From an uncultured bacterium (GTDB lineage Bacteria; DYJV01), in contig CAZBLP010000004.1 of the NCBI GenBank assembly GCA_964492825.1, forward strand, positions 1 to 56,376: a DNA stretch of 56,376 bases. Direction: 5' to 3'. The notes beneath the pieces were generated by a model, which saw only the letters and a list, made by a program, of their open reading frames with translations, did no database searches and had not been told where the DNA came from. The translations under genes were made by a program, and so were the position numbers. Of the stretch, positions 15,094-56,376 are shown piece by piece. The first letter of the stretch is position 1. Each line of letters starts with the position of its first letter.

Positions 15094-15204
15094 CAACATT
15101 TAAAAAAATTTTTCTGCTAAATTCTGTTGAGCAAATGCCTATAACTTGGTACTTAACACATATTACACTATTATTAATATATATTTTAAATTATTGCAAG
15201 TAAG

Positions 15205-15247: not shown

Positions 15248-15299
15248 TTTATATAAATATTTCTTGTTTTTAATCTAATTTTATGGCATAATTTACGGT

Positions 15300-29160: not shown

Positions 29161-29171
29161 GGAGAAAACAG

Positions 29172-29732: not shown

Positions 29733-29746
29733 TTCAGGAGGATTGG

Positions 29747-30157: not shown

Positions 30158-30159
30158 TA

Positions 30160-30217
30160 ATTGGATTTAGGATTTTGATATATTCCGGATCTTAAGTCCT
30201 AATCTAAAAATCCAAAT
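30160..30217. repeat. intergenic imperfect hairpin of GGATTTA/AAGTCCT-type heptamers
   Basis: TTGGATTT(30161-68) pairs with AAATCCAA(30208-15); AGGATTT pairs with AAGTCCT. Confidence 0.5.
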
Positions 30218-30232
30218 ACGTAGGAGTTTAAA

Positions 30233-31105: not shown

Positions 31106-31137
31106 AAAATTTTTAACTATTTTTTAGGGGAATATAA

Positions 31138-32466: not shown

Positions 32467-32481
32467 AAGAGGAATAATAAA

Positions 32482-34464: not shown

Positions 34465-34504
34465 ATTTTTAAAATAGATAAGTTATTACAAACAGAGGTT
34501 TAAT

Positions 34505-35047
34505 ATGAATAAATTTGCAGAAGAGATTAGCAGTAAAAGCGGAGAAATTTTTAATCTGTGTTATCAATGTAAAAAATGTACTGCAGGTTGTCCTACAGCG
34601 GAGTTTATGGATATTAAGCCAAATGAAATCATAAGACACATTCAATATGGCAACAGAGACAAATTATTAACAAGTGAAGCTATTTGGCTCTGTGTTTCCT
34701 GTGACACATGCGGTGAAAGATGTCCGAATGATATAAAAATTTCAAAATTAATGGGAGCTTTGAGAAGAAAAGCAATTGAAGATAAAGTGGAAATAGCTGA
34801 TAAAGTCGGCTATGCATTTAACAGATCATTTGTTGAAAGTATAAAAAGATACGGCAGGGTTCATGAAGCTACATTTTTAATTTCATACAAATTAAAAACA
34901 AAAGATTTTTTTAGCGAAGCTGCTTTAAATGACATGAAAGTCGGTATAAAATTATTCATGAGAGGTAAGTTACCTCTTTTCCCAAAAAAAATAAAAGACA
35001 TGACTGCTATTAAAAACATATTTAAAAAATGTGTGCCAGAGATTTAG
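34505..35047 (+). CDS. hdrC: heterodisulfide reductase subunit C (HdrC2)
   Basis: CYQCKKCTAGCP and CVSCDTCGERCP, GRVHE. Confidence 0.88.
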   Translation: MNKFAEEISSKSGEIFNLCYQCKKCTAGCPTAEFMDIKPNEIIRHIQYGNRDKLLTSEAIWLCVSCDTCGERCPNDIKISKLMGALRRKAIEDKVEIADKVGYAFNRSFVESIKRYGRVHEATFLISYKLKTKDFFSEAALNDMKVGIKLFMRGKLPLFPKKIKDMTAIKNIFKKCVPEI

Positions 35048-35102
35048 TTTTTTTTATTTTTAGAGAGCATTAATAAAATTTAAAAAAACATCAGGAGTAA
35101 AA

Positions 35103-35927
35103 ATGGAACTGTCATATTATCCAGGTTGTACTGCTCATTCAACAGCAATAGAGTATGAAAACTCAATTGAAGAAGTTTTGAAAATTTTGGGAGTAACAAT
35201 TAAAGAAATAGAAGATTGGAATTGTTGCGGCTCAGGGCCTGCAAAAAATATAAGCGAAGACCTTGTTATAAACCTTTCTGCAAGAAATATAAAAATAGCT
35301 GAAAAAGAGGGCAAAGATCTTCTTATACCATGTGCAGGATGTTTTAATAGTTTGAAAAGATCTGAATATGCATTAAAAGACAATAGTAAAAAAGCTGAAA
35401 TAGAGAATAATGTTGATTTCAAATTTCAGGGAAATATCAACATAAAATATATTTTGGATACATTTATGGAAATAGGTATTGATAAAATAAAAGCAAATGT
35501 TAAAAAAGAGTTATCACAAATTAAAGCTGTTTGTTATTATGGATGTGCAATTTTAAGACCAAGCGAGGTTGTAACTTTTGACAATCCCGAACATCCTGAT
35601 TCAATGGATGAATTAATGAAAGCAATTGGGGTGAAAGTTCTTGATTGGCCGTCAAAGGTTGACTGCTGCGGCGGTGATGCAGCTCTTACCAATCCGGAGC
35701 TTGCATCAAAATTAATTGGTAAGATCGTTGATTATGCAAAAGAAGCCGGAGCAAACTGTATTGTTACGTCATGCGGATTATGCCAGGCAAATATTGATAC
35801 AAAACAGAGCACGGATAATCCGTTGCCTGTGTTATATTTTACTGAATTAATAGGTGAAGCTTTTCAGGTTTCAGATACAAGCAGTTGGTGGAAAAAACAT
35901 ATTGTGGATCCAAAAGGATTATTTTAA
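35103..35927 (+). CDS. hdrB: heterodisulfide reductase subunit B (HdrB2)
   Basis: YYPGC/WNCCG/CAGC and YYGC/DCCG/CGLC. Confidence 0.92.
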   Translation: MELSYYPGCTAHSTAIEYENSIEEVLKILGVTIKEIEDWNCCGSGPAKNISEDLVINLSARNIKIAEKEGKDLLIPCAGCFNSLKRSEYALKDNSKKAEIENNVDFKFQGNINIKYILDTFMEIGIDKIKANVKKELSQIKAVCYYGCAILRPSEVVTFDNPEHPDSMDELMKAIGVKVLDWPSKVDCCGGDAALTNPELASKLIGKIVDYAKEAGANCIVTSCGLCQANIDTKQSTDNPLPVLYFTELIGEAFQVSDTSSWWKKHIVDPKGLF

Positions 35928-35956
35928 ATTTTAATTAAAAAATTCGGAGAATTAAC

Positions 35957-38950: not shown

Positions 38951-39019
38951 AATATAAAGACATAATTAAGACTTTTAGAAATAAAAAAACAACTTGAAAC
39001 TGAATAAAGAGGTGTGAAT

Positions 39020-39448
39020 ATGGCAGATGAGAAATTTGAACCAAAATTAATTGCATTTTTGTGTCACTGGTGTACTTATACAGGAGCAGACCTTGCCGGT
39101 ACCACAAGACAGCAGTACCCGCCTAATATAAGAGTTGTACATCTTATGTGCTCAGGTGGTATAGACGTTGTCTATGTACTAAAATCTTTGCTTGAAGGTG
39201 CAGACGGTGTACTTATTGGTGGATGTCATCCAGGGGATTGTCATTATCAATCAGGAAATTTTAAAGCAAGAAGAAGGATTGCTATTTTAAAAAATATTCT
39301 AAAACAATTCGGTCTGGAAGATGACAGAGTTTGGCTAAGGTGGATAAGTGCAAGTGAAGGTAAAATGTTTGCAGATACAGTTACTGAATTTACCAATTTT
39401 TTAAAAGCCAAAGGACCTGCTAAATTGAAGTTAACATGGGATGCTTAA
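39020..39448 (+). CDS. mvhD: MvhD/FlpD [2Fe-2S] subunit
   Basis: FLCHWCTY, LMCSG, GGCHPGDCHY; start ATG 39020 or GTG 39014. Confidence 0.92.
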   Translation: MADEKFEPKLIAFLCHWCTYTGADLAGTTRQQYPPNIRVVHLMCSGGIDVVYVLKSLLEGADGVLIGGCHPGDCHYQSGNFKARRRIAILKNILKQFGLEDDRVWLRWISASEGKMFADTVTEFTNFLKAKGPAKLKLTWDA

Positions 39449-39508
39449 TTTTTTAGATAATTGTCAGTTAAATGTTTTTAAGTTTGAACTAAACATAGGA
39501 GGAAATAG

Positions 39509-40630
39509 ATGCCTGTTACAAATAAAGTAAATAACCTGGAAGGGGTTATAGATTACTTAAAAAAATTACTTGAAAATAATGTGGTAGATGAAATTTTAAT
39601 ACCTAAACTCAGCAGCTCAAAAGATAATTATATCCAGACTCTTGTCAGTTCACCTGACATGTTAGAAGGCTGTAATCCTTTTGCACCTGTTATCCCTATT
39701 CAAACAGGTAGGATTGCAAAAAACCTGACTTTTACAACATCTGGCAAAAAATTGCTTATTATTGCAAAACCATGCGAAATTAAAGCAATTGTTGAGCTAA
39801 CGAAATTTAAACAGGTAAATCTTGACAATTGTTACATAATTGCAGTTGATTGTATTGGGACTTATGATGTTAACGATTTTCAGGAAATTTTATTGAATAA
39901 TCAAGATTATATAGATAATTTTACTTCAAAATACAGCAGCGGTGAATTTAAACCTGTTAATGGTTTTTCATTTAGAAAATCTTGCTCAATGTGTGAAACA
40001 CCCTCAATATCATTGGAACTTGTTGATGGTGTTTTCGGATATTTCGCCACTTCAGGAAGTGAAATTTTCATTATTGCCAAAGATGATTCTCCTTTAAAAG
40101 AAACTTTTGAAAATCAAAATCTGGATTTGTCAAAAAGAGAAGATGTTATAAATAAACTTAAACAGGAACGATTAAAGAATAAAAATGAAATTTTAAATAA
40201 TTTCAGAGAAGAAACATCAAATCTCGAATCTTTACAAAAGGTATTTTCAAAATGTATTAGATGCCACAACTGTATGGTTGCCTGTCCAATATGTTACTGC
40301 AAGGAATGTGTTTTCAGAAGTCCTACCTTTGATCATTCAGCTGATATGATTACAGGTTGGGCAGAAAGAAAAGGAGCCTTGAGAATGCTCGAAAACACAT
40401 TAATGTTTCACCTTACAAGACTTAATCATATGTCAAGTTCCTGTATAGCCTGCGGATTATGCTCAAGTGCATGTCCCAATGATATAGATGTGGCAACTGT
40501 TTTTATCAGTGTTTCAGACAATGTTCAAAATATGCTCGATTATAAAGCTGGTGAAAGTTTTGACGAGCCTGCGCCAGTTACAACTTTTAGAGAAAACGAG
40601 CTTGTTGCAGAAGCAGGCACAAATGAATAA
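39509..40630 (+). CDS. FdhB/FrhB-family iron-sulfur (flavo)protein
   Basis: KPCEIKAIVEL, DCIG, CSMC, CIRCHNCMVACPICYCKEC, CIACGLCSSACP. Confidence 0.75.
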   Translation: MPVTNKVNNLEGVIDYLKKLLENNVVDEILIPKLSSSKDNYIQTLVSSPDMLEGCNPFAPVIPIQTGRIAKNLTFTTSGKKLLIIAKPCEIKAIVELTKFKQVNLDNCYIIAVDCIGTYDVNDFQEILLNNQDYIDNFTSKYSSGEFKPVNGFSFRKSCSMCETPSISLELVDGVFGYFATSGSEIFIIAKDDSPLKETFENQNLDLSKREDVINKLKQERLKNKNEILNNFREETSNLESLQKVFSKCIRCHNCMVACPICYCKECVFRSPTFDHSADMITGWAERKGALRMLENTLMFHLTRLNHMSSSCIACGLCSSACPNDIDVATVFISVSDNVQNMLDYKAGESFDEPAPVTTFRENELVAEAGTNE

Positions 40631-40658
40631 TTTTATAAATATTATAAATTAACCAAGC

Positions 40659-41453
40659 ATGGAGGATAAAATGAGTGAAGCAAAAAAACAGCAAATTAAC
40701 ATTGCTACCGGTGACAGACCTGTTCTTCCGGAAGGTTCAAAAGAGATACCGGTATATATAATGGGTAAAAAATATATGGTGCCTGAGACAATTACCATTC
40801 AGAAAGCAATTGAATATGCCGGATATAAATTTATTAGAGCATGCGGCTGCCGTGGCGGAATTTGTGGTGCTTGCGGAACTGTTTACAGAATATACGGAGA
40901 TTACAGATTAAATTTCGGTTTAGCATGCCAGACTGTTGTACAGGAAAATATGTATATTGCACAGATTCCCTTTTATCCTGCTAACAGGGCAAAATATAAT
41001 ATAAATGAAGTAGAAGCAGAAGCAGACACAATAATGGCACTTTATCCTGAAGTTTTAAAATGTGTAGGATGTAACACTTGTTCAAAAGCCTGTCCTATGG
41101 ATATAGATGTTATGGGATACATTAATGCTGCAATGAGAGGTGATGTTGAAAAAGTGGCAAAATTATCTTTTGACTGTATTCAATGTGGGTTATGCTCGTC
41201 AAGATGTCCTGCACAAATACAGCATTATCACGTAGCGCAACTTTGCAGAAGATTGTATGGTAAATATATTCTTCCTAAGGATACTTTTTTACAGGAAAGA
41301 AGCAAGGACATAGAAAACGGCAAATATGAAAATATGCTTGCTGAATTAAAACAATTACCCCTTGATGAACTTAAGAAAAAATATGTTGCAAGAGAAATGG
41401 AGCCAGCAACTCATGACGGCACATGGATGCCTCAGGAAACGGAATATTTGTAA
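40659..41453 (+). CDS. FrdB/SdhB-like iron-sulfur subunit ([2Fe-2S] + 2x[4Fe-4S])
   Basis: CGCRGGICGAC...LACQT; CVGCNTCSKACP; CIQCGLCSSRCP; start may be ATG 40671. Confidence 0.8.
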   Translation: MEDKMSEAKKQQINIATGDRPVLPEGSKEIPVYIMGKKYMVPETITIQKAIEYAGYKFIRACGCRGGICGACGTVYRIYGDYRLNFGLACQTVVQENMYIAQIPFYPANRAKYNINEVEAEADTIMALYPEVLKCVGCNTCSKACPMDIDVMGYINAAMRGDVEKVAKLSFDCIQCGLCSSRCPAQIQHYHVAQLCRRLYGKYILPKDTFLQERSKDIENGKYENMLAELKQLPLDELKKKYVAREMEPATHDGTWMPQETEYL

Positions 41454-41489
41454 AATTAAAAATCGAAAATTTAAATAAAGGAGCAAAAA

Positions 41490-43148
41490 ATGGGATACAC
41501 ACCTGAAATGAAAGAATTAATAAAAAAAGTTGAAGCTTCAAGACCTGCAAGGGTTGATAAAGCAAGAAACGGGGAAATGTTTCCTCCTTTGACACTTGAT
41601 CAGAGAGAAGAAGTTCTGAATAAATTCCATCCTGATTATAAATCTGTGGGAAGACGTGCAGTAAAAGTTGGTCCAAGCAAAGGAGAAATTTATCCTGACG
41701 AATTTGCAGATGTACTTGAAGCTCACAGTAGAATCGAACCAAATATAGATTTGGACACTCTTTTAAAATATGAAACAGATGTGCTTGTAATAGGCGGGGG
41801 AGGAGCCGGAAGTGCAGCTGCATTGCTTGCACAGGAGCAAGGATGCAAAGTAATTATAGCCACAAAACTTCGTCATGGTGATGCCAATACAGTGATGGCA
41901 GAAGGCGGTATTCAGGGTGCTACAAGAAAACCTGATTCCCCATATTATCACTACCTTGATGTAATGGGAGGCGGACACTTTACCAATGATCCAGAGCTTG
42001 TTGCTGCTCTTGCAAATGATGCTCCTCTTGTTATTAGATGGCTTGAAGATCTCGGAATGATGTTTGACAAAGATGAAAAGGGTAATTTAAAAACAAGGCA
42101 TGGCGGAGGAACATGCAGAAAAAGAATGCACTCAGCAGGTGACATGACAGGTTCAGAAATAATGAGAGTTTTAAGAGATGAAGTTAGAAACAGATGTGAT
42201 GATATAGATGTTCTGGAATTTACTCCTGCTGTTGAAATAGTTTTGGATGAGAACGGTAATGCTGCAGGTGCAGTATTATACAACATGGAAACAGAAGAAT
42301 TTTTTGTTGTAAAAGCAAAAGCAGTTATTATTGCCACAGGTGGTTACGGAAGACTTCATATTCAAGGTTTTGCAACAACCAATCACTATGGTGCCACAGC
42401 AGATGGTCTTATATTAGGTTACAGAGCGGGAGTGCCTTTGGCTTTTATGCATTCCACTCAATATCACCCAACAGGAGCTGCATTTCCCGAGCAAAATATT
42501 GGGCTTTTAATTACAGAAAAAGTAAGAGGATTAGGTGCCAATCTTTTAAATATAAACGGAGAGCAGTTTGTATTTGAAAGGGAGCCAAGAGATGTTGAAT
42601 CAGCTTGTATTATCAGAGAATGCCTTGAAAGAGAGCTCGGCATTGTGACTCCTACAGGTAGAGTCGGTGTATGGCTTGATTCTCCAATGATTGACATGCT
42701 TGAAGGTGCTGGAACAGTTGAAAAAGAACTACCTGCAAAATATATTCAGTTTAAAAGATACAACATTGATATTAGCAAAGAGCCTATGCTTGTTTTTCCA
42801 ACACTTCATTATCAAAACGGAGGCTTAAAAATAAAAGATTCTACTGAGACTAATGTACCGGGGTTATTTGCTGCAGGTGAGGCAAGCGGCGGAGTTCACG
42901 GCGAGAACAGATTAATGGGAAATTCTCTTCTTGATATTACAGTTTTTGGAAGAAGAGCTGGAAAAGCCGCAGGAGAATATGTAAAAAACGGAGTTAATAT
43001 TGGTAAATTAACTCTTGAACATATAAAGAAATATGAAGAAGAATTAAAAGAAGCAGGTATTGATACAGAAAGGCAATCTCCAATGTTGCTTCCTGATTAC
43101 ACAAGACCTGAAATAAAAAAAAGCCAACTCACTCATATAGTATGGTAA
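41490..43148 (+). CDS. FrdA/SdhA/TfrA-like flavoprotein (dicarboxylate active site, no covalent-FAD His)
   Basis: GGGGAG, ANTVMAEGG, QYHPTG, LITEKVRG, EPRD, LHYQNGG, VHGENRLMGNSL. Confidence 0.85.
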   Translation: MGYTPEMKELIKKVEASRPARVDKARNGEMFPPLTLDQREEVLNKFHPDYKSVGRRAVKVGPSKGEIYPDEFADVLEAHSRIEPNIDLDTLLKYETDVLVIGGGGAGSAAALLAQEQGCKVIIATKLRHGDANTVMAEGGIQGATRKPDSPYYHYLDVMGGGHFTNDPELVAALANDAPLVIRWLEDLGMMFDKDEKGNLKTRHGGGTCRKRMHSAGDMTGSEIMRVLRDEVRNRCDDIDVLEFTPAVEIVLDENGNAAGAVLYNMETEEFFVVKAKAVIIATGGYGRLHIQGFATTNHYGATADGLILGYRAGVPLAFMHSTQYHPTGAAFPEQNIGLLITEKVRGLGANLLNINGEQFVFEREPRDVESACIIRECLERELGIVTPTGRVGVWLDSPMIDMLEGAGTVEKELPAKYIQFKRYNIDISKEPMLVFPTLHYQNGGLKIKDSTETNVPGLFAAGEASGGVHGENRLMGNSLLDITVFGRRAGKAAGEYVKNGVNIGKLTLEHIKKYEEELKEAGIDTERQSPMLLPDYTRPEIKKSQLTHIVW

Positions 43149-46981: not shown

Positions 46982-47686
46982 TCAGACACTTTCATTATTC
47001 TTTAAAATATATCCTATACCTGGTGCAGACTCAATGACAACGTGATTTTTTAATTTCTTTCTCAAATGGTTAATATGAACATCAATTGTTCTTGACCAAT
47101 TATAAATATCTTTTCCTTTCCAAAGATTTTCTTTAATTTCATTTCTGGAGCATATTCTATCACTGTTTTCAATTAGAAACATTAAAAGATTAAATTCTGT
47201 TCTTGTTAAATTGATTTTTTCATTATTAATATAAGCTTCTCTTTTCTGAGGATAAATAGTTAATGATTTAATGTTGACTACATCTTTTGAATTTAGTTTA
47301 TTATCTTTAAAATTATATCTTCTTAAACAACTCTTTATTCTCGCTGAAAGTTCCAGAAAATTAAAAGGCTTAACAATATAATCATCTGCTCCGCATTCAA
47401 GCCCAAGAACTTTGTCAGATACAGCATCTCTTGCAGTTAACATAATAACAGGTATATCCATATTTTCTTTTCTTATTTTATTGCATAATTGAATTCCGTC
47501 TATATCCGGGAGATTTAAGTCAAGTATTATAATATCAGGATTAGCTCCGGAAATTAAATCATAGGCTTCAAGGCCTGTTTCAGCAGTAATCACATCATAT
47601 CCTTCCAATTTCAGATTTGCAGAAATAACCTTTAAAATATCCGTATCATCATCTATAACTAAAATTAATATATCATTTTGTTCCAT
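46982..47686 (-). CDS. OmpR/PhoB-family response regulator
   Basis: IDDD, ILDLNLP phospho-Asp, MLTA, DYIVKPF, LTRTEF, RTIDVHINHLRKK, GIGY. Confidence 0.93.
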   Translation of the reverse strand: MEQNDILILVIDDDTDILKVISANLKLEGYDVITAETGLEAYDLISGANPDIIILDLNLPDIDGIQLCNKIRKENMDIPVIMLTARDAVSDKVLGLECGADDYIVKPFNFLELSARIKSCLRRYNFKDNKLNSKDVVNIKSLTIYPQKREAYINNEKINLTRTEFNLLMFLIENSDRICSRNEIKENLWKGKDIYNWSRTIDVHINHLRKKLKNHVVIESAPGIGYILKNNESV

Positions 47687-49286
47687 TTTTTGCCTCTAAA
47701 TTAAATTTTTTATTAAAAATAATTATAAACTTTATTCTGTTTTTGTCTATTAATTTTACTTTTATATCTCCTTTATGTGCTAACATTATACCTTTTGCAA
47801 TGGCAAGCCCAAGCCCGCTTCCTTTTTCTTTTGAAGATTTGAGATGTTTGTATTTTAAGAAAAATGTTGATATATTTTTTTCATCTAGTTCATGATCAGT
47901 ATTGTTGCTAATTGAAATTTTTATTGATTCATCTGTTTCATCAATAGAAATTGTAATTTTATCATTTTCAGGTGAAAATTTTATTGCATTATGTAAAATA
48001 TTTATTAAAACCTGATTTATTCTTTTTCTGTCAAGATAGACAAAAAACTCTTTTTTAAAATTTATTTTTTCAAATTCTATATTTTTTTCATCTGCATACC
48101 CTTTAAAAAAAACAAGAATTTCTTCAATAATATTGTTTAGCTTTTCCTTTTTTAATTCCAGCTCCAATCTACCAATTTCAATTCGTGCAATATCTATTAG
48201 GTTATTAACCATTAAAATAAGGTTTTTAATGTTTTTATCTATTATTTCAATAAACTCTTTGTTCTCTTTTTTGGTCAAAACTTTTGAAAGATATTCAATG
48301 CCTCCCTGAATTGTTGTAAGAGGTGTTCTTAACTCATGGGATACAGTAGCTAAAAAGTCAGTTTTTAATTTATTTTTTCTTTTTAGTTCTTCAGTTGCTT
48401 TTTCAATCTCTTTCTGCATAATTTCATGGTTATTTTTAATAATATTAGCCATATCAAAAAAATTATTTTTTAATTCTCCTATTTCATCCTTTCTTGATGA
48501 TTTCTCAAATTCAGTTAAATAATTTTCTTTAAATCTCTCAATACGCTCCTTTATTGAATTAACAGGTTTAATAACAAGAAAATAATTTAAAAAATATATT
48601 ATTAAAATTGTAAAAAAAATTATAAGCAGTGAAGAGAAAAAGTAGTATTTTTTTATTATACACAACTTTTTATCTACATCAGACAAAGGGAGTAAAACAC
48701 TTATACAACCTCTCAATTCCCCTATATTATATCCTTGATACATATGACAGGTAAGACAAGATTTTTTTATATATAGAGGTCTAATCAATCTGTAAAATTT
48801 TTTATGCATTAGATACTCAACCTGAGTCACCTCTTTGGCTTTTTTCCTGTCAAAAATCCTCAAAGCATAACTTTCAGTGTCATCAGGAGCATTTGCAGGA
48901 TTAATTAAAAAATTACTTGATAGCTTGAAAAAATATTTTCCGTTTTTAAAAGCATAGTCGGAAAGCTCTCTTGTAACCATAGCTGGATTTCTTTTTAGAA
49001 AAATTTTATCTCCGCATTTTATAAAAGGTTTACTCAAGTAAGGATTAATATAAAGTCCTTTTCTTTTTAAAACATAAACCCCTCCAATATCAGCTATCCA
49101 TTTTCTTGTTAATATTATTTGATCAACTAAAATCTCTGCTTGTTTATAAACTTCTTCATATAAAAATTTTTTCTCTTGTTTAAAAAACATATAAAAGATT
49201 CCTCCTAAAATTAAGGAAAGAACAGTTATAATCCCCATTAGATACTTAAAACTAAGAGAAAAATAAAATTTTTTAATTATTTGCAT
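47673..49286 (-). CDS. sensor histidine kinase with periplasmic DUF3365/Tll0287-like heme-c domain
   Basis: TM1, NPANAPD...CLTCH (CxxCH), TM2, HAMP, VSHELRTPL, NAIKF, GSGLGL. Confidence 0.88.
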   Translation of the reverse strand: MQIIKKFYFSLSFKYLMGIITVLSLILGGIFYMFFKQEKKFLYEEVYKQAEILVDQIILTRKWIADIGGVYVLKRKGLYINPYLSKPFIKCGDKIFLKRNPAMVTRELSDYAFKNGKYFFKLSSNFLINPANAPDDTESYALRIFDRKKAKEVTQVEYLMHKKFYRLIRPLYIKKSCLTCHMYQGYNIGELRGCISVLLPLSDVDKKLCIIKKYYFFSSLLIIFFTILIIYFLNYFLVIKPVNSIKERIERFKENYLTEFEKSSRKDEIGELKNNFFDMANIIKNNHEIMQKEIEKATEELKRKNKLKTDFLATVSHELRTPLTTIQGGIEYLSKVLTKKENKEFIEIIDKNIKNLILMVNNLIDIARIEIGRLELELKKEKLNNIIEEILVFFKGYADEKNIEFEKINFKKEFFVYLDRKRINQVLINILHNAIKFSPENDKITISIDETDESIKISISNNTDHELDEKNISTFFLKYKHLKSSKEKGSGLGLAIAKGIMLAHKGDIKVKLIDKNRIKFIIIFNKKFNLEAKNGTK

Positions 49287-49309
49287 AAAAAAATTTTAGA
49301 GCATTTTTT

Positions 49310-49864
49310 TTAAAAAGTCAAAATAAAATTTTCAATAAGCTGAATAACATGCTCATAAAATTTTATATTCTCTTTTTTAACTTTTTTATTAAGTTCAGGG
49401 ATCCAGCTTTTCAGATGGGTATTTTCAAAGGAAATTAACTTTTCAATTTTGTTTTCAGAACTCAAATAATGTGCAAATTCAAGTATGGTAGGAAGGTAAT
49501 CAGGCATATCTCTGTCAGCAAGTTCCACACCTTCTTCATAATATAACTTTTCAAGAGACAATAGGAACTTAGCTCTGTCTTCAGCTCTATCGCTTTTTAC
49601 TATATAATGAGATTCATATAATGGAGTTTTCAAATCAAAATTGGTTGTGTATGTAACCTGTAACTCCTCTATATCTGTAAAATCTTTTCTCATTAAATTG
49701 ATTAGCTTTTCACTTCCGTCTCGCCTGAAATATTCTTTAAGATTATCAAAAAGCCAACCAGAAATGATAGCTTCAGCTATTTCTTTGTCAGGATAACTTA
49801 TTGCCATTGATAAAAGTTTATAATTTACTGTTTTGTTAATGCTTTCATCCATAACTATCTCCAA
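49310..49864 (-). CDS. TorD/DmsD/NarJ-family molybdoenzyme chaperone (delta subunit)
   Basis: YTTNFD...PLYES...MPDYLPTILEF; directly after beta subunit; start may be a few codons downstream. Confidence 0.8.
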   Translation of the reverse strand: MEIVMDESINKTVNYKLLSMAISYPDKEIAEAIISGWLFDNLKEYFRRDGSEKLINLMRKDFTDIEELQVTYTTNFDLKTPLYESHYIVKSDRAEDRAKFLLSLEKLYYEEGVELADRDMPDYLPTILEFAHYLSSENKIEKLISFENTHLKSWIPELNKKVKKENIKFYEHVIQLIENFILTF

Positions 49865-49875
49865 AAGATAAAGAT

Positions 49876-49948
49876 TGATTAGGATTTAGTTTCAGGGATT
49901 AGGATATAGTTTTTTCACTAAATCCTATCCCCTAAATCCCAAATCCTA
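49876..49948. repeat. intergenic inverted array of GGATT(T)A/TAAATCC heptamers
   Basis: GATTAGGATTTAG...GGGATTAGGATATAG versus CTAAATCCTATCCCCTAAATCCCAAATCCTA. Confidence 0.55.
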
Positions 49949-49987
49949 TTTTTTATTTCTCATTATTCATTTTTAATTGAGTTATAT

Positions 49988-50905
49988 TTACAACTTCCAT
50001 GTTGGAAAACCTGTTAATACATCAACAAGTTCTGATTGGGATTTTTCTCTTTCAGTTTCAAGAATTTTTTTAATTTCTTTCACTTTTTTACCAAAAAGTC
50101 CCTCCAAATATGTATAATCAACTCTTTCTCCACTGCTGTTTCCCTTATCATCTATTTTATGCTGAGCTACCATAACAGGTGGAATATAAAACACTTTTGG
50201 TTTTGTATTAAATTCGGAAAGAAGTGGAACAGCAACCTTATATTTTTTAACAAGTTTGTATACAGGAGATTCTTTATCATTTAATTTACCAAAAAATCTT
50301 GCTTTCCCAGGACATGTAATAACACAGGCAGGTGGCTCTCCTTTTTCAAGTCTTGGGAAACAAAAAATACACTTCTCAGCATTATCCATGTTTTTATTAA
50401 AAAATATTCTTTTATACGGACATGCATCTATACAATCTCCCGCACCTTCACATTTTTCACTGTCAATAAGTACAAAACCTTCTTTGGTCTTGTAAATTGC
50501 TTTTGCAGGACATGCCTTCATACAAGCAGGATCTTCACAATGCATACAGATCATAGGCAAATAAAAAAACCATTCATCTGCAACATTCATCCCATTACCC
50601 ATATCCTCGTAATAGTTTGGACTATTTTTAAGGTTTATACCAATATTAGGCAAACCTTTTCCTTTATTGCTGTGTAATTTGGAGTAATCAAATTTAGGTA
50701 CATTCTCATAATCTTTGTCATCCATCTTCATTTTCTTTTTTGTTTTCTCAAGCCAATTGTATGGATATCCCTGCCCCGGACGTGTCTCTACAATGGTAAA
50801 CCACATATGCTGTGCACCATCTCTATTGCTCCATAGCATTTTACATGCAACAGTGCATGCTTGACAACCAAGACATTTATTTAAATCTATTACCATACCG
50901 TACAT
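49988..50905 (-). CDS. DMSO-reductase family type II beta (Fe-S) subunit, NarH/PcrB/SerB-like
   Basis: CLGCQACTVACK, WFFYLPMICMHCEDPACMKACP, CEGAGDCIDACPY, CIFCFPR...CVITCP. Confidence 0.9.
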   Translation of the reverse strand: MYGMVIDLNKCLGCQACTVACKMLWSNRDGAQHMWFTIVETRPGQGYPYNWLEKTKKKMKMDDKDYENVPKFDYSKLHSNKGKGLPNIGINLKNSPNYYEDMGNGMNVADEWFFYLPMICMHCEDPACMKACPAKAIYKTKEGFVLIDSEKCEGAGDCIDACPYKRIFFNKNMDNAEKCIFCFPRLEKGEPPACVITCPGKARFFGKLNDKESPVYKLVKKYKVAVPLLSEFNTKPKVFYIPPVMVAQHKIDDKGNSSGERVDYTYLEGLFGKKVKEIKKILETEREKSQSELVDVLTGFPTWKL

Positions 50906-50929
50906 GACAACCTCCTATAATTTATGATT

Positions 50930-53900
50930 TTACATAATTTTTTTAATTTCTACTGAAGTATCACATTCATTTCCAGTAACACCCCAGAAATTCCAACCAT
51001 ATTTCAAATGATAAGAAGGTGCTTTTGTTTCAGGATACTTTACAGATTGAGTAGGTTTTGGCCTAATTGGAGTAATACCGTTAAACCATCCTTTTATTGT
51101 GGTGAACATCTCAGCACCGTTTGCAACTCTTACTTCTCCCTCTTTAATGCCAGCCATAACTTTTGCCCTGCAAATCATTTCTCCGAATTCATTGAATATT
51201 TTAATTTTATCTCCGTCATTTATTCCTCTTTTTAAAGCATCTGCTTTACTCATTAATGCAATTGTCTCACCTCTTTGTAGCCTTAGAAGAATGTCCACAT
51301 CTCTAAATGTTGAATGTGTTCCCCATCTGCCGTGAGGAGTATTCAATTTTAACGGAGCTTTTGTTCTCTTATCAGGAAGTCTGTCAAATTCAGGTTCCTT
51401 GTATATTGGCAGCTCATTTCTCAAATCAAGGAAATATGAATGATCAATGTAAAACTGTTGCCTTCCTGTTAATGTTTTGGCACCAATCATACCAAGATAT
51501 TTTTTACCGAAAAATTTAGGAACCTTCACTTTCCCACCTATAGTAATTTTTTCTTTGGCAAGTTTTCCACCTCCTGGCCATGGCAAAAGTCCTTCCACAT
51601 TTTCAACAAAAGGAGTAAGAGGTCTTCTGCTCTGAGCAGCTGGAAATGGAACAGGAGCTTTTCTAATCAATTTCACAATTCCATCAATGTATCCTTTTAC
51701 ATCTCCTTTAAAAAGTTTGTTTTCTATTATTTGCTGAAGTTCTGGAGCATAGTTGTTTTTATGTGCTTTATACTCATCAGGATTAGGATAAATTATAGGG
51801 CTTTTAGTTAGGATAAATTTGGCTGATTTAACATCAGTGTCCATTTTCCCATTAGCTGTAAATACAGAATAAACTTTTGTAAAATCAATGGTTTGTTTTT
51901 TTTCTGTATCTTTCCATTTTCCATCCCACCTGCCTGTTGCTACCAATTTATGGGAATAATTCTGTATTCCTTTTGCAATTAATTTAAAGATTTCATAATC
52001 TGTTTTTGATTCATATAGAGGTTTTATTACAGGATTGAATGCCTGCAGATATACATGCATAGGAGTAGTTTCAACATCAAATTTTTCGTACCAAGTAGCA
52101 GCCGGTAATACTACATCACAAAAAAGTGCCGTAGAGTTAATCCTAAAATCAATTGTTACCAAAAATTCAAGTTTTTCAGGATCTTTGAACCATTTTAACG
52201 TATTATATCCGCCTTTACCCTGGTTTAAGAAATTTGACCTCCAAATTATCATTGCTCGTGGCTTTTTCGGTGGTTTTGGATAAACAGGTATCCATTTTTT
52301 TGCAAGAGATTTAATAAGCAGATAATAATTGTAAGCCCAGCCATCATCTTTATTAGCACTAACAGGTAAACCATTAGGTAGTCTTTTCAATTTGCCTGAT
52401 TCTATATCCTTTACTATTTCAGGATATGTTTTGCCAAGTTTATACAGTTCTGCATCATAATGTGACCAAACAAAAAGAGTAGCATTTTGAGGTCTTGCTT
52501 TTAGTATCATTCCATATTTTCCAAGACCGCTTAGCCATACTTTATATTGCCCTGTATATTGGCTGAAACCTGAACCGGTTTTCCCAACATTACCAGTAAG
52601 AGCAAGCATTAATATCATTGAACGGTTATTAATATCATTGTTAAACCAGTGGTTAACTCCACCGCCACCAATAATCATTGCAGGTTTTTTACTAACAAGG
52701 TCAAGAGCAAATTCTTTTAATGTCGCCTCACCTATACCGGTTATTTGAAAAACTTTACCAGGTGTAAATTTTGAAACTTCTTTTTTAAGTTTGTTAAAAA
52801 CAGTTTCTACCTGAACTTTCATTCCGTTCTTAAGAGTAATTTCTCCTTCATAAAATAGAGAAGGATCAATATTGTATTTTTTCAGATTAAGTGTATCTCT
52901 GTTATCACCAAGAGTTCCTGGTGGATTAACTATCATCATTGAATTATTATCATAAACAAAAAGTTTAAAAGCATTTCCACCTGATTTCACATCAGCTTCA
53001 GTGAGGAATTTACCATTATCTTTTCTAATAATAAAAGGCAAATCAGTAAAAGTTTTAACATATTCATGGTCAAAACTGTGGCTTGAAATTAAATAATTAA
53101 TAACACCATTTGCAAATGCTGCATCAGTACCAGGCTTTGGCGAAATAAAAACATCGCCCATTCTTGCTGTAGCATTGTAATCTGTCATAATAGTATAAAT
53201 TTTTGTGCCTCTGTATTTGGATTCTTGCAATAGATGAGCTGCTGCAAGTCTTGATTCAGCAACATTTGCTCCCCAGAAAATAAGAAGTTTTGCATTTTTC
53301 CAGTCAGCTTCTTCACTTTCTTCTGTTTGAACTGCCCATGTCATTGGCTCTCCTGGAGGTAAATCACAGTACCAATCATAAAAACTCAATGGGCCACTTG
53401 CTCCCATAATTTTACAAAGCCTGTAGCCTGCACCTGCTGATACATAACTGTAAGCAGGAATTGCAGAAAAAAATACAACTTCATCTGAACCATGCTTTCT
53501 TGAAATATCAGTAAGTTTTTTGGAAATCAGGCTTATTGCTTCGTCCCATGTTGCTCTTCTGAATTTCCCTTCTCCTCTTTTCCCAACTCTTATTAAAGGA
53601 TGTTTCAATCTCATATCACCGTAAACATATCTGAGATAACTTGCACCTCTTAAACAACCACGTGGATTATAATATTTACCGAGAACTTTGTCATAAGTGT
53701 CGTAATCACCTGCCGGAGCAATTTCTACAATGTATTTGTCTCCTTTTACAAAAGCATTCCAGCCACAAGCTTGAGTACAGTTTGCAGAACATACACTTCT
53801 TATAACTTTGTCATAATCAAATACTTTTCTTAATTTGTCTTCGCTAACTTTGTGAAGTTTTCTGCCCACAAATTTTCCTGCATAAAGATTTTCAGAAATT

Positions 53901-53986
53901 AATGGTAAAGCTGTAAGCCCTGCTAATCCTCCTGCAACTGTTCCTAAAAACTTACGTCTTGTAATTTTTCTACTGTTTCCTGACAT
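50930..53986 (-). CDS. Tat-exported DMSO-reductase family type II molybdoenzyme alpha subunit (periplasmic NarG-like)
   Basis: TRRKFL Tat motif; CSANCTQAC...RGC FS0; SFYDWYCDLPP with Asp Mo ligand; TPHGRWGTHS. Confidence 0.88.
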   Translation of the reverse strand: MSGNSRKITRRKFLGTVAGGLAGLTALPLISENLYAGKFVGRKLHKVSEDKLRKVFDYDKVIRSVCSANCTQACGWNAFVKGDKYIVEIAPAGDYDTYDKVLGKYYNPRGCLRGASYLRYVYGDMRLKHPLIRVGKRGEGKFRRATWDEAISLISKKLTDISRKHGSDEVVFFSAIPAYSYVSAGAGYRLCKIMGASGPLSFYDWYCDLPPGEPMTWAVQTEESEEADWKNAKLLIFWGANVAESRLAAAHLLQESKYRGTKIYTIMTDYNATARMGDVFISPKPGTDAAFANGVINYLISSHSFDHEYVKTFTDLPFIIRKDNGKFLTEADVKSGGNAFKLFVYDNNSMMIVNPPGTLGDNRDTLNLKKYNIDPSLFYEGEITLKNGMKVQVETVFNKLKKEVSKFTPGKVFQITGIGEATLKEFALDLVSKKPAMIIGGGGVNHWFNNDINNRSMILMLALTGNVGKTGSGFSQYTGQYKVWLSGLGKYGMILKARPQNATLFVWSHYDAELYKLGKTYPEIVKDIESGKLKRLPNGLPVSANKDDGWAYNYYLLIKSLAKKWIPVYPKPPKKPRAMIIWRSNFLNQGKGGYNTLKWFKDPEKLEFLVTIDFRINSTALFCDVVLPAATWYEKFDVETTPMHVYLQAFNPVIKPLYESKTDYEIFKLIAKGIQNYSHKLVATGRWDGKWKDTEKKQTIDFTKVYSVFTANGKMDTDVKSAKFILTKSPIIYPNPDEYKAHKNNYAPELQQIIENKLFKGDVKGYIDGIVKLIRKAPVPFPAAQSRRPLTPFVENVEGLLPWPGGGKLAKEKITIGGKVKVPKFFGKKYLGMIGAKTLTGRQQFYIDHSYFLDLRNELPIYKEPEFDRLPDKRTKAPLKLNTPHGRWGTHSTFRDVDILLRLQRGETIALMSKADALKRGINDGDKIKIFNEFGEMICRAKVMAGIKEGEVRVANGAEMFTTIKGWFNGITPIRPKPTQSVKYPETKAPSYHLKYGWNFWGVTGNECDTSVEIKKIM

Positions 53987-54031
53987 CCCCCCTCCTCCTT
54001 TTTAAATATTTTATGCTTGGGAAATTATTGT

Positions 54032-54101
54032 ATTTTATATACATTATATTAAAGTAAATTTGCTGTAAAATAGTGTTATTTTCTTGTAAAGATTCTGTAA
54101 A
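54032..54101 (-). promoter_or_regulatory. promoter module A: five phased TTTACA-type direct repeats + -10 region (molybdoenzyme operon)
   Basis: minus strand TTTACA-gaatc-TTTACA-agaaa-ATAACA-ctat-TTTACA-gcaaa-TTTACT-N9-TGTA-TATAAAAT. Confidence 0.7.
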
Positions 54102-54304
54102 AAAAAGGAAAATTGGATTTTGTTGATAGAATTTAGGATATAGTTTTTTTATAATTCTATAATCCAGTTATAAATTTATATAACAGTTTAATGTGGAGGG
54201 TATAGTAATTCAACATTTTATACAAAGTATTTACAATCATTCAATCAATTACAGTCAATTACAATTAATAACCATAAATAACTAATTCTTCATTATTAAT
54301 TGTA

Positions 54305-54868
54305 TTATTTTAAATTTTCTTTAAAAATAGTTATTTTTTTACCTTTCTCCAATTTGTCAACAAGTTTTTTGTATAATTTTTTCTCTTTTCCAAGTGCAAT
54401 ATAGTCTCTTGCCGTAACTCTATCAACTCCTTTATGTTTTTTCACATAATCATCAATTTCCTCTGTAGTGACTTTAACCTTTTTAGAAATGTTTTCAATA
54501 AAATATTGCCTTAGAACTATGGTTGTCTGATAAGAATTGTCTTTTTTTAAGAAACTGTGTTTTTTAAAATTTTCCTTCATGGTTTTTCTTCCAAAATAAC
54601 CTTTTTCCCTTGCGTCTTCGATAATAAGAGTTCTTTCTATTAAATGATTCAACATTTTTAATTTTTCATCCAAGGTTGAAGGCTTTTTATTAAAAAGATT
54701 AAGAAAGTCGATATAATCCTGATAAGTAATTTCCATATTATTTATCTTTGCAACAATAATTTTCTCACTTGATTTAACAGGTGCATTGTTTTTTTTGTCC
54801 ACAGACGCTGCCAACAAAACAGGCAATATTACAACAATAAGAATAGTGTTAAAAATTTTTATTTTCAT
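54305..54868 (-). CDS. secreted SurA N-terminal-domain-like protein
   Basis: signal peptide; IVAKINNMEIT...LNHLIERTLIIEDAREKG; no PPIase core seen. Confidence 0.6.
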   Translation of the reverse strand: MKIKIFNTILIVVILPVLLAASVDKKNNAPVKSSEKIIVAKINNMEITYQDYIDFLNLFNKKPSTLDEKLKMLNHLIERTLIIEDAREKGYFGRKTMKENFKKHSFLKKDNSYQTTIVLRQYFIENISKKVKVTTEEIDDYVKKHKGVDRVTARDYIALGKEKKLYKKLVDKLEKGKKITIFKENLK

Positions 54869-54948
54869 AAAAAATATTCCTCCTTAAAAGTTTTAAAGTA
54901 AAATTAAAATAAACAAAACTTTTTTTTAAGTCAATTGCAAATAATAAT

Positions 54949-55018
54949 TTTACAAAATCTTTACAAAAAATTTACACACTTTAACCCCAAATTTACTTTT
55001 ATTAGTTGTATATAATAT
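54949..55018 (+). promoter_or_regulatory. promoter module B: five phased TTTACA-type direct repeats + -10 region (Rieske/cytochrome b operon)
   Basis: TTTACA-aaatc-TTTACA-aaaaa-TTTACA-cact-TTAACC-ccaaa-TTTACT-N9-TGTA-TATAATAT. Confidence 0.7.
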
Positions 55019-55055
55019 CAACCTTAAAAATAAGCAAGTAAAGGAGGTGTGTAAA

Positions 55056-55508
55056 ATGGCTGATGAAGAAAAAAAAGAAGATTTGTCAAGAAGAGATTTT
55101 ATGTCCAATTTTGCAGCTGGTATTGGTATAGCAGCAGTTGGAGTAACTTCCGCAGTCTATGGTTTCAAATACCTTGTTCCCCCTTCTAAGAAAAAGAAAG
55201 AAGTAAAAGTTTTAATGGCTAAAGCTAATGAAATTAAGCCTGGAGAAGCAAAAGAATTTTTTGACGGACAGGGTAGAAAAGCTCTGCTTGTTAATCAAAA
55301 TGGCAAAATTAAAGCTTTTTCAAAAATCTGCACTCATCTTGGATGTGAGGTTGAATGGAAACCTGAAGAAAATATTTTCTTCTGTCCCTGTCATTTAGGC
55401 AAATTTGATGCAAACGGTAAAAACATTGCAGGTCCTCCGCCTCGTCCTCTTGATGAGTTTAAAGTAGAGGTAAAGGATAATTTTGTTTTTGTTACTTTAA
55501 TAGTTTAA
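55056..55508 (+). CDS. Rieske [2Fe-2S] protein of a Rieske/cytochrome b complex
   Basis: SRRDFM Tat anchor, CTHLGC and CPCHLG boxes; GGAGG RBS favours ATG 55056. Confidence 0.93.
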   Translation: MADEEKKEDLSRRDFMSNFAAGIGIAAVGVTSAVYGFKYLVPPSKKKKEVKVLMAKANEIKPGEAKEFFDGQGRKALLVNQNGKIKAFSKICTHLGCEVEWKPEENIFFCPCHLGKFDANGKNIAGPPPRPLDEFKVEVKDNFVFVTLIV

Positions 55509-55523
55509 AGGAGGTGAGAATAT

Positions 55524-56376
55524 ATGATTAATGCTCAAAATATGAGTACATGGGAAAAATTTAAAGCAGTTGTGCTTGACGAAGATCTGCCTGAACATAT
55601 GAAAATATGGTGGTGGTGTCTTGGAGGAGTGCCTGCTGTTCTTCTTTTAATATTGATAATTACCGGGATTCTCCTTGCAATGAATTATTCTCCTACAATC
55701 AGCGGTGCCTATGAAAGCGTAAATTACATTACCAACAATATAAGATATGGATGGTGGTTAAGAGCTATTCATAAATGGTCAGCAGAGTTAATGGTAGTTA
55801 CTGTTTCATTGCATGTTATAAGAGTGTTTTTTACTCGCGCTTATACAAAACCAAGAGAATATGTATGGATGTCAGGGGTTCTACTTTTACTTATGACACT
55901 ATTTGCAGGTTTTACAGGTTATTCTTTGCTTTATACCCAGAAATCTTATTGGGCAGTTACAGCTGGTACAAATTTGGCCGGGAAAATTGCCATTGTAGGT
56001 CCATTCTTGCAAAAATTGCTAATTGCAGGTGACTCTTTTAATAAATTCACTTTAAGCAGATTCCTGATTTTACACGGTGCAGTTGTTCCTGCTGTAATAG
56101 GCGGTATAATTTTTATTCACATAATTCTTCTGAGAAAAGTTGGAGTAAGTGAGTTAAATGGAGGAGGCAAAACATATAAATTTTATCCCGACCATATTAT
56201 GACTGAAGTTATTATAGGTTTAATGTTGCTTTTCTTTATGACTGTTCTTGCAATAGTTTTTCCTTTAGAACCTGGAGTAAAAGCCAATCCTCTTGTTACT
56301 CCGCTGCATATTAAACCTGAGTGGTATTTTTATCCTATGTTTAAGTGGATAAAATTAACCTCACAATGGATAGGAT
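55524..56376 (+). CDS. cytochrome b/b6 (fused b6 + subunit IV), truncated by window end
   Basis: hand-translated open frame from ATG 55524 (AGGAGG RBS): WWWCLGG, IHKW, LHVI, LHGA, IHII, IKPEWYFYP; absent from the ORF track because the stop lies outside the window. Confidence 0.92.
   Translation, partial: MINAQNMSTWEKFKAVVLDEDLPEHMKIWWWCLGGVPAVLLLILIITGILLAMNYSPTISGAYESVNYITNNIRYGWWLRAIHKWSAELMVVTVSLHVIRVFFTRAYTKPREYVWMSGVLLLLMTLFAGFTGYSLLYTQKSYWAVTAGTNLAGKIAIVGPFLQKLLIAGDSFNKFTLSRFLILHGAVVPAVIGGIIFIHIILLRKVGVSELNGGGKTYKFYPDHIMTEVIIGLMLLFFMTVLAIVFPLEPGVKANPLVTPLHIKPEWYFYPMFKWIKLTSQWIG

Follow-up and report, generated by a model that had tools for sequence, protein, structure and literature searches.

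The 56,376-nucleotide stretch of DNA analysed here (the window; contig CAZBLP010000004.1 of assembly GCA_964492825.1, from an uncultured bacterium) ends in a respiratory locus in which an operon for a NarG-like, exported molybdoenzyme (subunits alpha and beta and the chaperone delta), closed by a sensor kinase and a response regulator, stands opposite an operon that opens with a Rieske protein and a cytochrome b. Genes were mapped from a listing of open reading frames (ORFs) combined with Pfam and NCBIfam profile searches, and every gene that an earlier, sequence-only reading of this DNA had described was found again at its place. The sequence past the end of the window was read from the metagenome contig L001 (L-numbers denote related loci), which overlaps window positions 51559 to 56376 at 99.9% identity (over 4.8 kb). 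Coordinates are collected in Table 1.

Genes and promoters of the locus

Alpha scored 704 bits against TIGR03479 (type II DMSO-reductase alpha; cut-off, 985) and 431 bits against the narG model (cut-off, 1084), beta scored 330 bits against TIGR03478 (type II beta; cut-off, 481) and 196 bits against narH, and delta scored 55 bits against TIGR00684 (narJ) and 52 bits against TIGR03482. Beta is presumably exported together with alpha. The layout is not that of NarGHI: alpha carries a signal for the twin-arginine translocation (TAT) pathway, NarI is missing, and the subunits measure 1018 and 305 aa against about 1240 aa (alpha) and 510 aa (beta) in NarGHI. The sequence-only reading had noted that the operon lacks a gamma or other quinol-oxidising subunit, and this held: ORFs and Pfam searches gave no haem-b gamma subunit (EbdC/SerC/NarC type), NarI or other membrane subunit in or around alpha-beta-delta, gaps included, and no small haem ORF in the intergenic gaps of the locus.

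The cytochrome b gene is cut by the end of the window, which holds the first 284 of 335 aa. The whole protein, read from L001, has His pairs spaced 13 and 14 residues apart, PEWY and WCLGG; the 14-residue spacing and the Cys of WCLGG, which binds haem ci in b6-type proteins, mark it as b6-type. The Rieske protein starts at the ATG at 55056, the version that gave an exact match to other records (a GTG-start version gave none). By these motifs, the two proteins carry the signatures of a Q-cycle. The second Rieske box, CPCHLGKF, lacks the Ser and Tyr typical of high-potential Rieske proteins, which fits menaquinol as the donor.

Beyond cytochrome b, L001 encodes a 537-aa octahaem protein (eight CxxCH; N-terminal hydrophobic segment), a 423-aa octahaem protein (eight CxxCH; typical signal peptide) and then convergent housekeeping genes. 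Cytochromes c had been expected past the end of the window; two are there, although they are HAO-family octahaems and not simple carriers. No monohaem cytochrome c1 or f was met in L001, where the gene directly after cytochrome b codes for the larger octahaem. Against PDB, this protein matched 4qo5 (E, 3e-26), the Kuenenia HAO-like protein 6h5l (2.7e-20) and Nitrosomonas HAO 1fgj (5e-16); the alignments to HAO end before the region of the cross-linking Tyr, which tells oxidative members of the family from reductive ones. The smaller one matched Kuenenia HOX 4n4j (8e-25), among others. Both are assigned to the HAO family on these similarities. The soluble 423-aa paralogue is confined to the lineage of the window.

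Both operons are preceded by the same promoter module, as the sequence-only reading had seen; the shared stretch proved larger than the core, with 57 of 75 positions identical in an ungapped comparison (54947-55021, plus strand, with 54103-54029, minus strand). A repeat search independently returned the pair as a 71-nt inverted repeat that is 79% complementary. The 18-nt core, TTTACAnAATCTTTACAA, occurs exactly twice in the 56 kb, upstream of alpha and upstream of Rieske, each time oriented with its operon (two matches in 0 of 100 shuffles). In each module, four TTTAC(A/T) hexamers lie on the same face of the helix, at offsets of 0, 11, 22 and 43 on the Rieske side and 0, 11, 32 and 43 on the alpha side, with a TATAAT/TATAAA box about 13 nt past the last hexamer; neither module has a good -35 element. 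Such a layout suggests a promoter activated by a regulator of OmpR/PhoB type. The operons had been read as a divergon, and they do diverge from copies of one module; however, a gene for a 187-aa SurA-like protein lies between the copies, so the arrangement is not a simple back-to-back divergon.

The motif is kept upstream of both units in relatives. In L087, from a far GC-richer genome, phased TTTAC[AC] arrays stand upstream of both alpha and Rieske and include an identical TTTACAGCAAATTTAC; L088/L089 and L006, with four hexamers each, also have arrays upstream of Rieske, as do L098, L101, L102, L103, L106 and L170. At least nine related loci thus show arrays before alpha, Rieske or both; the background, taken over 866 kb of loci, is 0.04 per kb. 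L099 and L105 have TTAAC variants. The Nap-type loci checked showed neither TTTACA arrays nor the kinase and regulator. From this distribution, the motif travels with the kinase/regulator pair, and orthologues of the regulator lie beside the system in L087, L088, L086 and L092. The TTTACA arrays are very probably the binding sites of this regulator, as far as motif and gene distribution can tell.

The kinase matched PF11845 (63.6 bits; 3.5e-17) and has a CLTCH motif (CxxCH) at residue 177, between predicted transmembrane (TM) segments 9-37 and 209-245. The locus had been read as having its own haem sensor, and the predicted periplasmic Tll0287-like CxxCH domain agrees; with its signalling output, the protein fits the definition of sCache_haem (DUF3365/Tll0287-like). 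This domain has been redefined as a haem-c Cache domain, and a signalling member behaves as a nitric oxide (NO) sensor (bioRxiv 10.64898/2026.02.01.703092). By extrapolation from that one characterised family member, NO or a related signal is a reasonable guess for what the kinase may sense.

Table 1. Features of the respiratory locus (window positions) and small membrane proteins of related loci (positions in the locus named)
Feature	Position	Strand	Remarks
Response regulator, OmpR/PhoB family, 234 aa	46982..47686	-	Response_reg and Trans_reg_C; start overlaps kinase stop
Sensor histidine kinase, 537 aa	47673..49286	-	PF11845 (Tll0287-like), HAMP/HisKA/HATPase
Delta, NarJ/type II DMSO-reductase-family assembly chaperone, 184 aa	49310..49864	-	PF02613
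Beta, Fe-S subunit with four clusters, 305 aa	49988..50905	-	TIGR03478; no signal peptide
Alpha, TAT-exported molybdopterin subunit, 1018 aa	50930..53986	-	RRKFLGT twin-arginine signal; TIGR03479
Predicted promoter/regulator-binding module upstream of alpha	54029..54103	-	Phased TTTACA/TTTACT hexamers, then TATAAA/TATAAT-like -10
SurA-N/PpiD-like protein, 187 aa	54305..54868	-	N-terminal TM segment, no Cys; weak SurA_N and EpsD-type matches
Predicted promoter/regulator-binding module upstream of Rieske	54947..55021	+	TTTACA at 54949, 54960 and 54971; TTTACT at 54992; TATAAT at 55011
Rieske 2Fe-2S protein, 150 aa	55056..55508	+	PF00355; TAT signal-anchor SRRDFMS; CTHLGC, CPCHLGKF
Cytochrome b, b6-type, fused to subunit-IV-like domain	55524..56376	+	PF00033 and PF00032; gene cut by window end
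Type-B small membrane proteins, L086	14052-14779
Type-B small membrane proteins, L090	14070-14823
Type-B small membrane proteins, L092	13028-13757
Type-B small membrane proteins, L093	6971-7701
Type-B small membrane proteins, L094	13102-13820

Relatives of the enzyme and of the electron-transfer unit

Homologues of alpha were sought in a collection of 5.8 billion proteins. They form a sharply bounded clade of about 38 clusters (48 to 100% identical; 1007 to 1060 aa), outside which proteins are at most 40% identical and mostly 900 to 990 aa long. Named members come from 'Deltaproteobacteria' metagenome-assembled genomes (MAGs), Korarchaeota including Ca. Methanodesulfokora, Pyrodictium, Ammonifex degensii KC4 and Syntrophomonas erecta, and only A. 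degensii and S. erecta were seen as cultured carriers. A scan of a genome collection with the alpha alignment was swamped by canonical NarG, which shares the FYDWYCD pattern, and returned one clade member, L006. No named Archaeoglobus, Moorella or Carboxydothermus protein was among the matches of at least 48% identity, most in-clade clusters being unnamed; identity of the clade with the AF0176/Moth_1908 'pNar' group was considered and set aside, the clade most likely lying outside that group as judged from the names of matches rather than from a direct comparison of sequences. A literature search of incomplete coverage returned no description of the clade, nor of a cluster of pNar-like enzyme, Rieske/cytochrome b (Rieske/b) and octahaem in bacteria, which is absence of evidence only.

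Among PDB entries, alpha matched PcrA with 496 bits, Escherichia coli NarG with 382, EbdA with 251 and Kuenenia NxrA with 178. The active site was aligned with Kluyvera georgiana NarG (L024; identity about 35%) and a haloarchaeal pNarG (L013; about 37%). The segment that provides the Mo ligand, SFYDWYCDLPPGEP, is the same as in NarG and pNarG, whereas PcrA has FYDWYGDHPTG; the Asp of SFYDWYCD aligns with the Mo ligand Asp222 of NarG, and equivalents of NarG Asn52, Arg94, His546, His1092 and His1098 are kept. By these comparisons, alpha is a member of a small, distinct NarG-like clade within the type II DMSO-reductase family.

The loci of the clade fall into two types. In type A (alpha at least 66% identical to that of the window), alpha-beta-delta has no small membrane subunit and is linked to Rieske, cytochrome b (split or fused), an octahaem of about 538 aa and the haem-sensor kinase and regulator. 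A co-occurrence analysis had been proposed as a check on the sequence-only reading, and it bore the association out: the parts stay together in three gene orders, at orthologue identities of 66 to 83% for alpha, 61 to 72% for the octahaem and about 50 to 60% for Rieske/b (overall range, 37 to 83%). The first order is the divergent one of the window and of L001 to L005; in the second (L087, 83% identical, and L106), alpha-beta-delta-regulator-Rieske-b-octahaem is colinear and the kinase divergent; in the third (L088/L089, L006, L097, L101 and L102), Rieske-b-octahaem-(95-aa monohaem cytochrome c)-SurA-like-alpha-beta-delta(-hcp) is colinear and kinase-regulator(-CRP) divergent. The monohaem cytochrome c of the L088/L089 lineage (L088, 8915-9202) is secreted, has a CSKCH motif, lies between the octahaem and the SurA-like gene, and could be a shuttle to the molybdoenzyme; it is missing from the lineage of the window. 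L088, a 'Deltaproteobacteria' MAG, also encodes a weakly matching cytochrome bd-like membrane protein and a CRP-family regulator beyond kinase and regulator, and hcp directly after the delta chaperone (these side genes lie at 579-1934 and 14988-16652). In L095 (4790-8770) and L096 (12-3992), two Tn5-family ORFs (Dimer_Tnp_Tn5, DruA/Tnp_DNA_bind) and a DDE_5/DDE_Tnp_1 transposase stand directly upstream of a type-A alpha, at the place of the Rieske/b-octahaem operon in other lineages, which suggests a recent disruption or relocation.

In type B (alpha 48 to 58% identical; Ammonifex, Syntrophomonas, Korarchaeota and other archaeal or unnamed MAGs), Rieske/b is missing, and a 2-TM protein of about 80 aa and a protein of about 160 aa with some 4 TM segments, whose N-terminal His residues are conserved (e.g., AFHNVLVH), are encoded between beta and delta. 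Neither belongs to a Pfam family; as candidates, they could provide a Nar-like enzyme with a novel membrane anchor or with a quinol-oxidising subunit. The Firmicutes of type B retain the same kinase/regulator pair. In A. degensii, the gene order is Rrf2, hcp, NapH-like polyferredoxin, alpha, beta, the two TM proteins, delta, kinase, regulator, HPP-family protein, resB, ccsA, nrfH, nrfA and glnA, which by gene content is a nitrate-to-ammonium layout. This organism reduces nitrate to ammonium. Set side by side, the two types look as if the module for electron input had been exchanged while the catalytic core was conserved.

The protein encoded between the two promoter modules, a Cys-free, membrane-anchored, SurA-N/PpiD-like protein of about 180 aa, is kept upstream of alpha in most type-A loci; the orthologue is directly upstream in L088 (9284-9829), L006 (6242-6784), L097 (3250-3768), L101 and L102, and was undetected anywhere in L087 (tblastn) and in L106. 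Its gene in the window is bracketed by an AT-rich inverted repeat of 22 nt (54305-54326 / 54891-54912; 91%). It was considered as a gamma subunit and rejected, having no Cys, no haem motif and no EB_dh match; it may act as a chaperone or scaffold in assembly.

Scanning metagenomes with five aligned octahaem orthologues of about 538 aa yielded 80 octahaem loci at 45 to 96% identity, whose neighbourhoods were surveyed in a tblastn census. Of the 52 loci that offered 1.8 kb or more of upstream sequence, 40 have cytochrome b/Rieske directly beside the octahaem. Where at least 7 kb was available on both sides (20 loci), NapA was present in 17 (12 with Rieske/b, 5 without), two loci had Rieske/b and kinase/regulator and no molybdoenzyme, and one had neither partner. 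NCBIfam models bore out NapA, NapG and NapH in L112, L114 and L137, and the order in L112 is napA...napG-napH-Rieske-b-octahaem. Among the metagenome loci L098-L177, HAO-like octahaems that are 55 to 62% identical to that of the window lineage are widespread beside napA/napGH, mostly preceded by Rieske and cytochrome b. In L099 (5804-12589) and L105 (5733-14367), kinase/regulator, Rieske/b and octahaem are followed by an ORF of about 181 to 183 aa with no Pfam match and no detectable similarity to the SurA-like protein of the window. Next in L105 comes a methyl-accepting chemotaxis protein with a PilJ-type N-terminal domain; a similar one precedes alpha in Syntrophomonas (L092, 7235-8848).

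Electron flow, substrate and rival explanations

On balance, and with some reserve, we favour the reading that the locus encodes a self-contained periplasmic respiratory module that takes nitrate to ammonium, i.e., of the type of dissimilatory reduction of nitrate to ammonium (DNRA). Menaquinol would be oxidised at the Qo site of the dedicated Rieske/cytochrome b6-type complex, with protons pumped by a Q-cycle, and the place of a cytochrome c1 or f as c-type partner of this complex would be taken by the HAO-family octahaem of about 538 aa, which has a hydrophobic anchor or signal at its N terminus. Electrons would leave by two branches: one in which nitrite (or NO or hydroxylamine) would be reduced at the 538-aa octahaem, at the soluble 423-aa octahaem or at both, and one, in type A, in which they would pass to beta and on to the gamma-less NarG-like alpha, reducing nitrate to nitrite in the periplasm. 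The periplasmic haem-c kinase would sense NO, a related nitrogen oxide or a redox signal, and the OmpR-type regulator would bind the 11-bp-phased TTTACA repeats, so that the alpha-beta-delta-kinase-regulator and Rieske-b-octahaem operons would be induced jointly; since kinase and regulator are co-transcribed with alpha-beta-delta, the system would amplify itself. We infer the nitrate substrate, the direction of electron flow, the contact of octahaem with beta, the sensed signal and the binding of the regulator. From gene context, nitrate is likely to be the substrate of alpha. The claim that the Rieske/b-octahaem unit is the electron donor of the molybdoenzyme we rate a little above even.

Several observations count against this module as drawn. 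The Rieske/b-octahaem unit co-occurs with Nap loci that have their own quinol dehydrogenase, NapGH, and no molybdoenzyme lies within 10 kb of it in L099 and L105, which makes reduction of nitrite (or of NO or hydroxylamine) the more likely core job of the unit and weakens the wiring of Rieske/b to the molybdoenzyme; the unit has no need of a pNar-like enzyme and may serve the nitrite step alone. The 538-aa octahaem may be either catalytic or a relay alone, its 13 invariant non-motif His residues not discriminating between the two, and its N terminus could be a cleaved signal peptide instead of an anchor. Upstream of alpha in the type-A locus L095/L096, transposases stand in place of Rieske/b, and a donor may be encoded elsewhere in the genome. 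A rival reading is that of electrically separate, co-regulated branches, in which Rieske/b-octahaem would be a quinol:nitrite (or NO/hydroxylamine) reductase only, with the molybdoenzyme fed by a soluble cytochrome, a NapGH/NapC-like protein or another membrane protein encoded elsewhere. This would suit the HAO-like nature of the octahaem family, its place mostly beside Nap systems with their own NapGH, the presence of kinase/regulator with Rieske/b and no nearby molybdoenzyme in L099 and L105, and the monohaem cytochrome c between octahaem and alpha in L088-type loci, which hints at a separate shuttle. We nonetheless hold it to be rather unlikely: no type-A locus examined encodes another donor; relatives without Rieske/b have two membrane proteins inside the operon, so the donor is normally encoded alongside the enzyme; and the linkage of alpha-beta-delta to Rieske/b-octahaem was kept through three rearrangements. 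The exchange of anchor for Rieske/b between the types is the strongest indirect argument that Rieske/b-octahaem takes the anchor or donor role in type A. The sequence-only reading had Rieske/b feeding the enzyme; its Q-cycle signatures and its linkage fit that idea, but the unit is most simply a quinol-oxidising nitrite (or NO/hydroxylamine) reductase, and the feeding is what we infer.

Other points against the favoured module concern the active site of alpha, which is not purely Nar-like. The FS0 cluster motif is Cx3Cx3C...C against Hx3Cx3C...C in NarG, pNarG and PcrA (His49 of NarG becomes Cys), HYVGQEK of NarG and HYIGQWK of PcrA are replaced by QYTGQYK, and a Tyr occupies the position of the PcrA gate Trp, where NarG has Glu; 33 sequences show the FS0 Cys and QYTGQYK changes (alpha residues 66-74 and 476-482) without exception. 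For the alpha clade, moreover, substrate and direction are drawn from gene context. Another oxyanion, such as (per)chlorate or selenate, would suit the Tyr at the gate position, the clade-specific Cys ligand of FS0 and the fact that PcrA is the closest solved structure (496 bits versus 382 for NarG), and archaeal pNar also reduces chlorate and perchlorate (PMC6299022); the nitrogen-oxide context would then come from the octahaem branch only. Such a substrate is nevertheless improbable, given that the Asp-ligand segment is like that of NarG and pNarG and unlike the FYDWYGDHPTG of PcrA, that the Ammonifex homologue lies amid hcp-HPP-nrfHA-glnA and hcp adjoins in L088, and that no chlorite dismutase was found among the scanned ORFs of the window. 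The enzyme also holds the position that Nap has in most sister loci, which strengthens the nitrogen-oxide assignment. Operation in the oxidative direction, on nitrite as in nitrite oxidoreductase or on another reduced compound, with reverse flow through Rieske/b into the quinone pool, is hardly credible: type II enzymes are reversible in principle and anammox bacteria combine NXR, HAO-like proteins and Rieske/b complexes, but neither an oxidase nor another high-potential acceptor is encoded in the locus, the context in the host is anaerobic and rich in Hdr/MvhD, the Ammonifex homologue has a reductive neighbourhood (nrfHA), and the match to Kuenenia NxrA is weak (178 bits).

The favoured module can also be drawn more tightly. 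The alpha clade, taken as deep-branching, may have lost its anchor in one bacterial lineage and now dock on Rieske/b6-octahaem as an NO-sensing supercomplex in which both reductions are fed by the Q-cycle, a tentative idea that we regard as doubtful. If true, periplasmic nitrate ammonification would be fully electrogenic, with an H+/e- ratio above those of the described Nap/Nrf or Nap/epsilonHao chains.

Genomic setting and known systems

The locus had been called an island. The rest of the window consists of housekeeping genes (rpoD, dnaG, tig, clpP, leuA, ilvC, lpxC, glnA and hflX) and an Hdr/MvhD-like and fumarase cluster; no integrase, tRNA or mobility gene was found in the window, its GC content is near background with no composition break, and an Rfam scan of it gave zero matches (no rRNA, tRNA or riboswitch). 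A genomic island or recent transfer was rejected on the lack of mobility genes and of a composition break and on the housekeeping flanks, and the term island is dropped. The GC content of the window is about 30%; L087 and L088, which have the same system, are far GC-richer. The RpoD protein (16822-18633) has relatives at 70 to 91% identity and then drops to about 51% with 'Deltaproteobacteria'/Syntrophobacteria MAGs. Exact matches to the Rieske protein occur on five metagenome contigs, one record being named hydrothermal-vent metagenome. The cluster at 28321-43148 encodes a two-subunit class I fumarase, several flavoproteins of HdrA type, among them one of 997 aa, CCG-domain HdrB-like and HdrC-like proteins, MvhD (FlpD) and, at 41490-43148, a flavoprotein of fumarate-reductase type; the cluster could be a system for fumarate reduction linked to thiols or Hdr. 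At 13235-16802, unlinked to the respiratory locus, a glutamine synthetase gene (minus strand) diverges from that of a GAF-domain sigma-54 activator, a pair that may be relevant to how ammonium is handled.

Periplasmic nitrate and nitrite reductases are usually thought to conserve little or no energy, and generation of proton-motive force (pmf) by nitrate ammonification is debated case by case. In this locus and its relatives, a dedicated Rieske/b is the sole quinol oxidase encoded with a nitrate-reductase-like enzyme and HAO-like candidates for a nitrite reductase, and a haem-c Cache sensor and a clear DNA motif are tied to the respiratory regulon. The gene set makes the idea of Q-cycle-coupled DNRA directly testable.

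Among solved enzymes, PcrAB (Azospira; PDB 4ydd) and E. coli NarGHI (PDB 1q16) share fold, Asp Mo ligand and FS0-FS4 wiring with the enzyme of the window. Alpha differs from both, PcrA having FYDWYGDHPTG and the Trp gate, and NarG facing the cytoplasm with NarI. The selenate reductase SerABC of Thauera selenatis, a Qcr-dependent periplasmic reductase, is fed via cytochrome c4; it has a haem-b gamma subunit, unlike the enzyme described here.

Haloarchaeal pNar is antimycin sensitive and clustered with the Rieske/b proteins NarB/NarC, and a Q-cycle-coupled supply has been proposed for it (PMC4683180). Like haloarchaeal pNarGH (Haloferax, Haloarcula), the locus joins Rieske and cytochrome b to beta, a NarJ-like chaperone and a NarG-like alpha that is exported by TAT and has the same Asp-ligand segment; unlike it, the window has a bacterial host, an alpha of only about 37% identity, a Cys ligand in FS0, HAO-family octahaem partners, a haem-c kinase/regulator pair, divergent units and a duplicated promoter. 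In the model for Methanoperedens nitroreducens, Rieske/b with pentahaem cytochromes feeds a pseudoperiplasmic Nar (PMC4683180). The path from menaquinol through Rieske/b and a multihaem cytochrome c to an outward-facing Nar-type enzyme would be the same here, whereas that system is archaeal, its pentahaem cytochromes are not HAO-like, and its Rieske/b cluster lies away from nar.

The sequence-only reading had inferred a bacterial counterpart of the haloarchaeal arrangement. Such a bacterial version is not without precedent: for Caldithrix abyssi, pmf-generating nitrate ammonification by nap-Rieske/cytochrome b-epsilonHao (Cabys_2564-2556), with epsilonHao as nitrite reductase, has already been proposed (PMC5317091). 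That locus, like L112 and L114, is a bacterial periplasmic nitrate reductase locus in which Rieske and cytochrome b are followed by an HAO-type octahaem; Rieske/b-octahaem units are common beside Nap loci in metagenomes, and the arrangement of Caldithrix type seems common in environmental bacteria. There, NapA has its own donors NapGH (and NapM), whereas here alpha-beta-delta is NarG-like and gamma-less with no other donor, and the kinase/regulator pair and TTTACA arrays set the window apart from the Nap-type loci checked. In Kuenenia stuttgartiensis, the R/b-3 complex (kuste4569-4574) includes the HAO-like subunit Kuste4574, a suspected nitrite reductase (PMC12485887). It too joins a Rieske/b complex to an HAO-family octahaem as c-type partner, and Kustc0458, the homologue of Kuste4574, is the 6h5l protein matched by the 537-aa octahaem (E, 2.7e-20); unlike the unit described here, R/b-3 has extra subunits, sits in the anammoxosome membrane and shows no linkage to an operon for a Nar-like reductase, and its activity is putative as well.

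Nap/Tor of Campylobacter jejuni and the N2O reductase of Wolinella are Qcr dependent (Garg 2018 and Hein 2017, as cited in PMC6896113), which gives a functional precedent for electrogenic feeding of periplasmic molybdo-reductases by a housekeeping bc-type complex. Unlike in the locus described here, the bc complex of these reductases is a general one, neither encoded nor regulated with the reductase. The design principle is already known; the combination is new, comprising an anchor-less NarG-like clade in bacteria, its joining at the level of the locus to a Rieske/b-HAO-like unit, the swap of anchor for Rieske/b inside the clade, and a haem-c sensor regulon with a duplicated promoter module.

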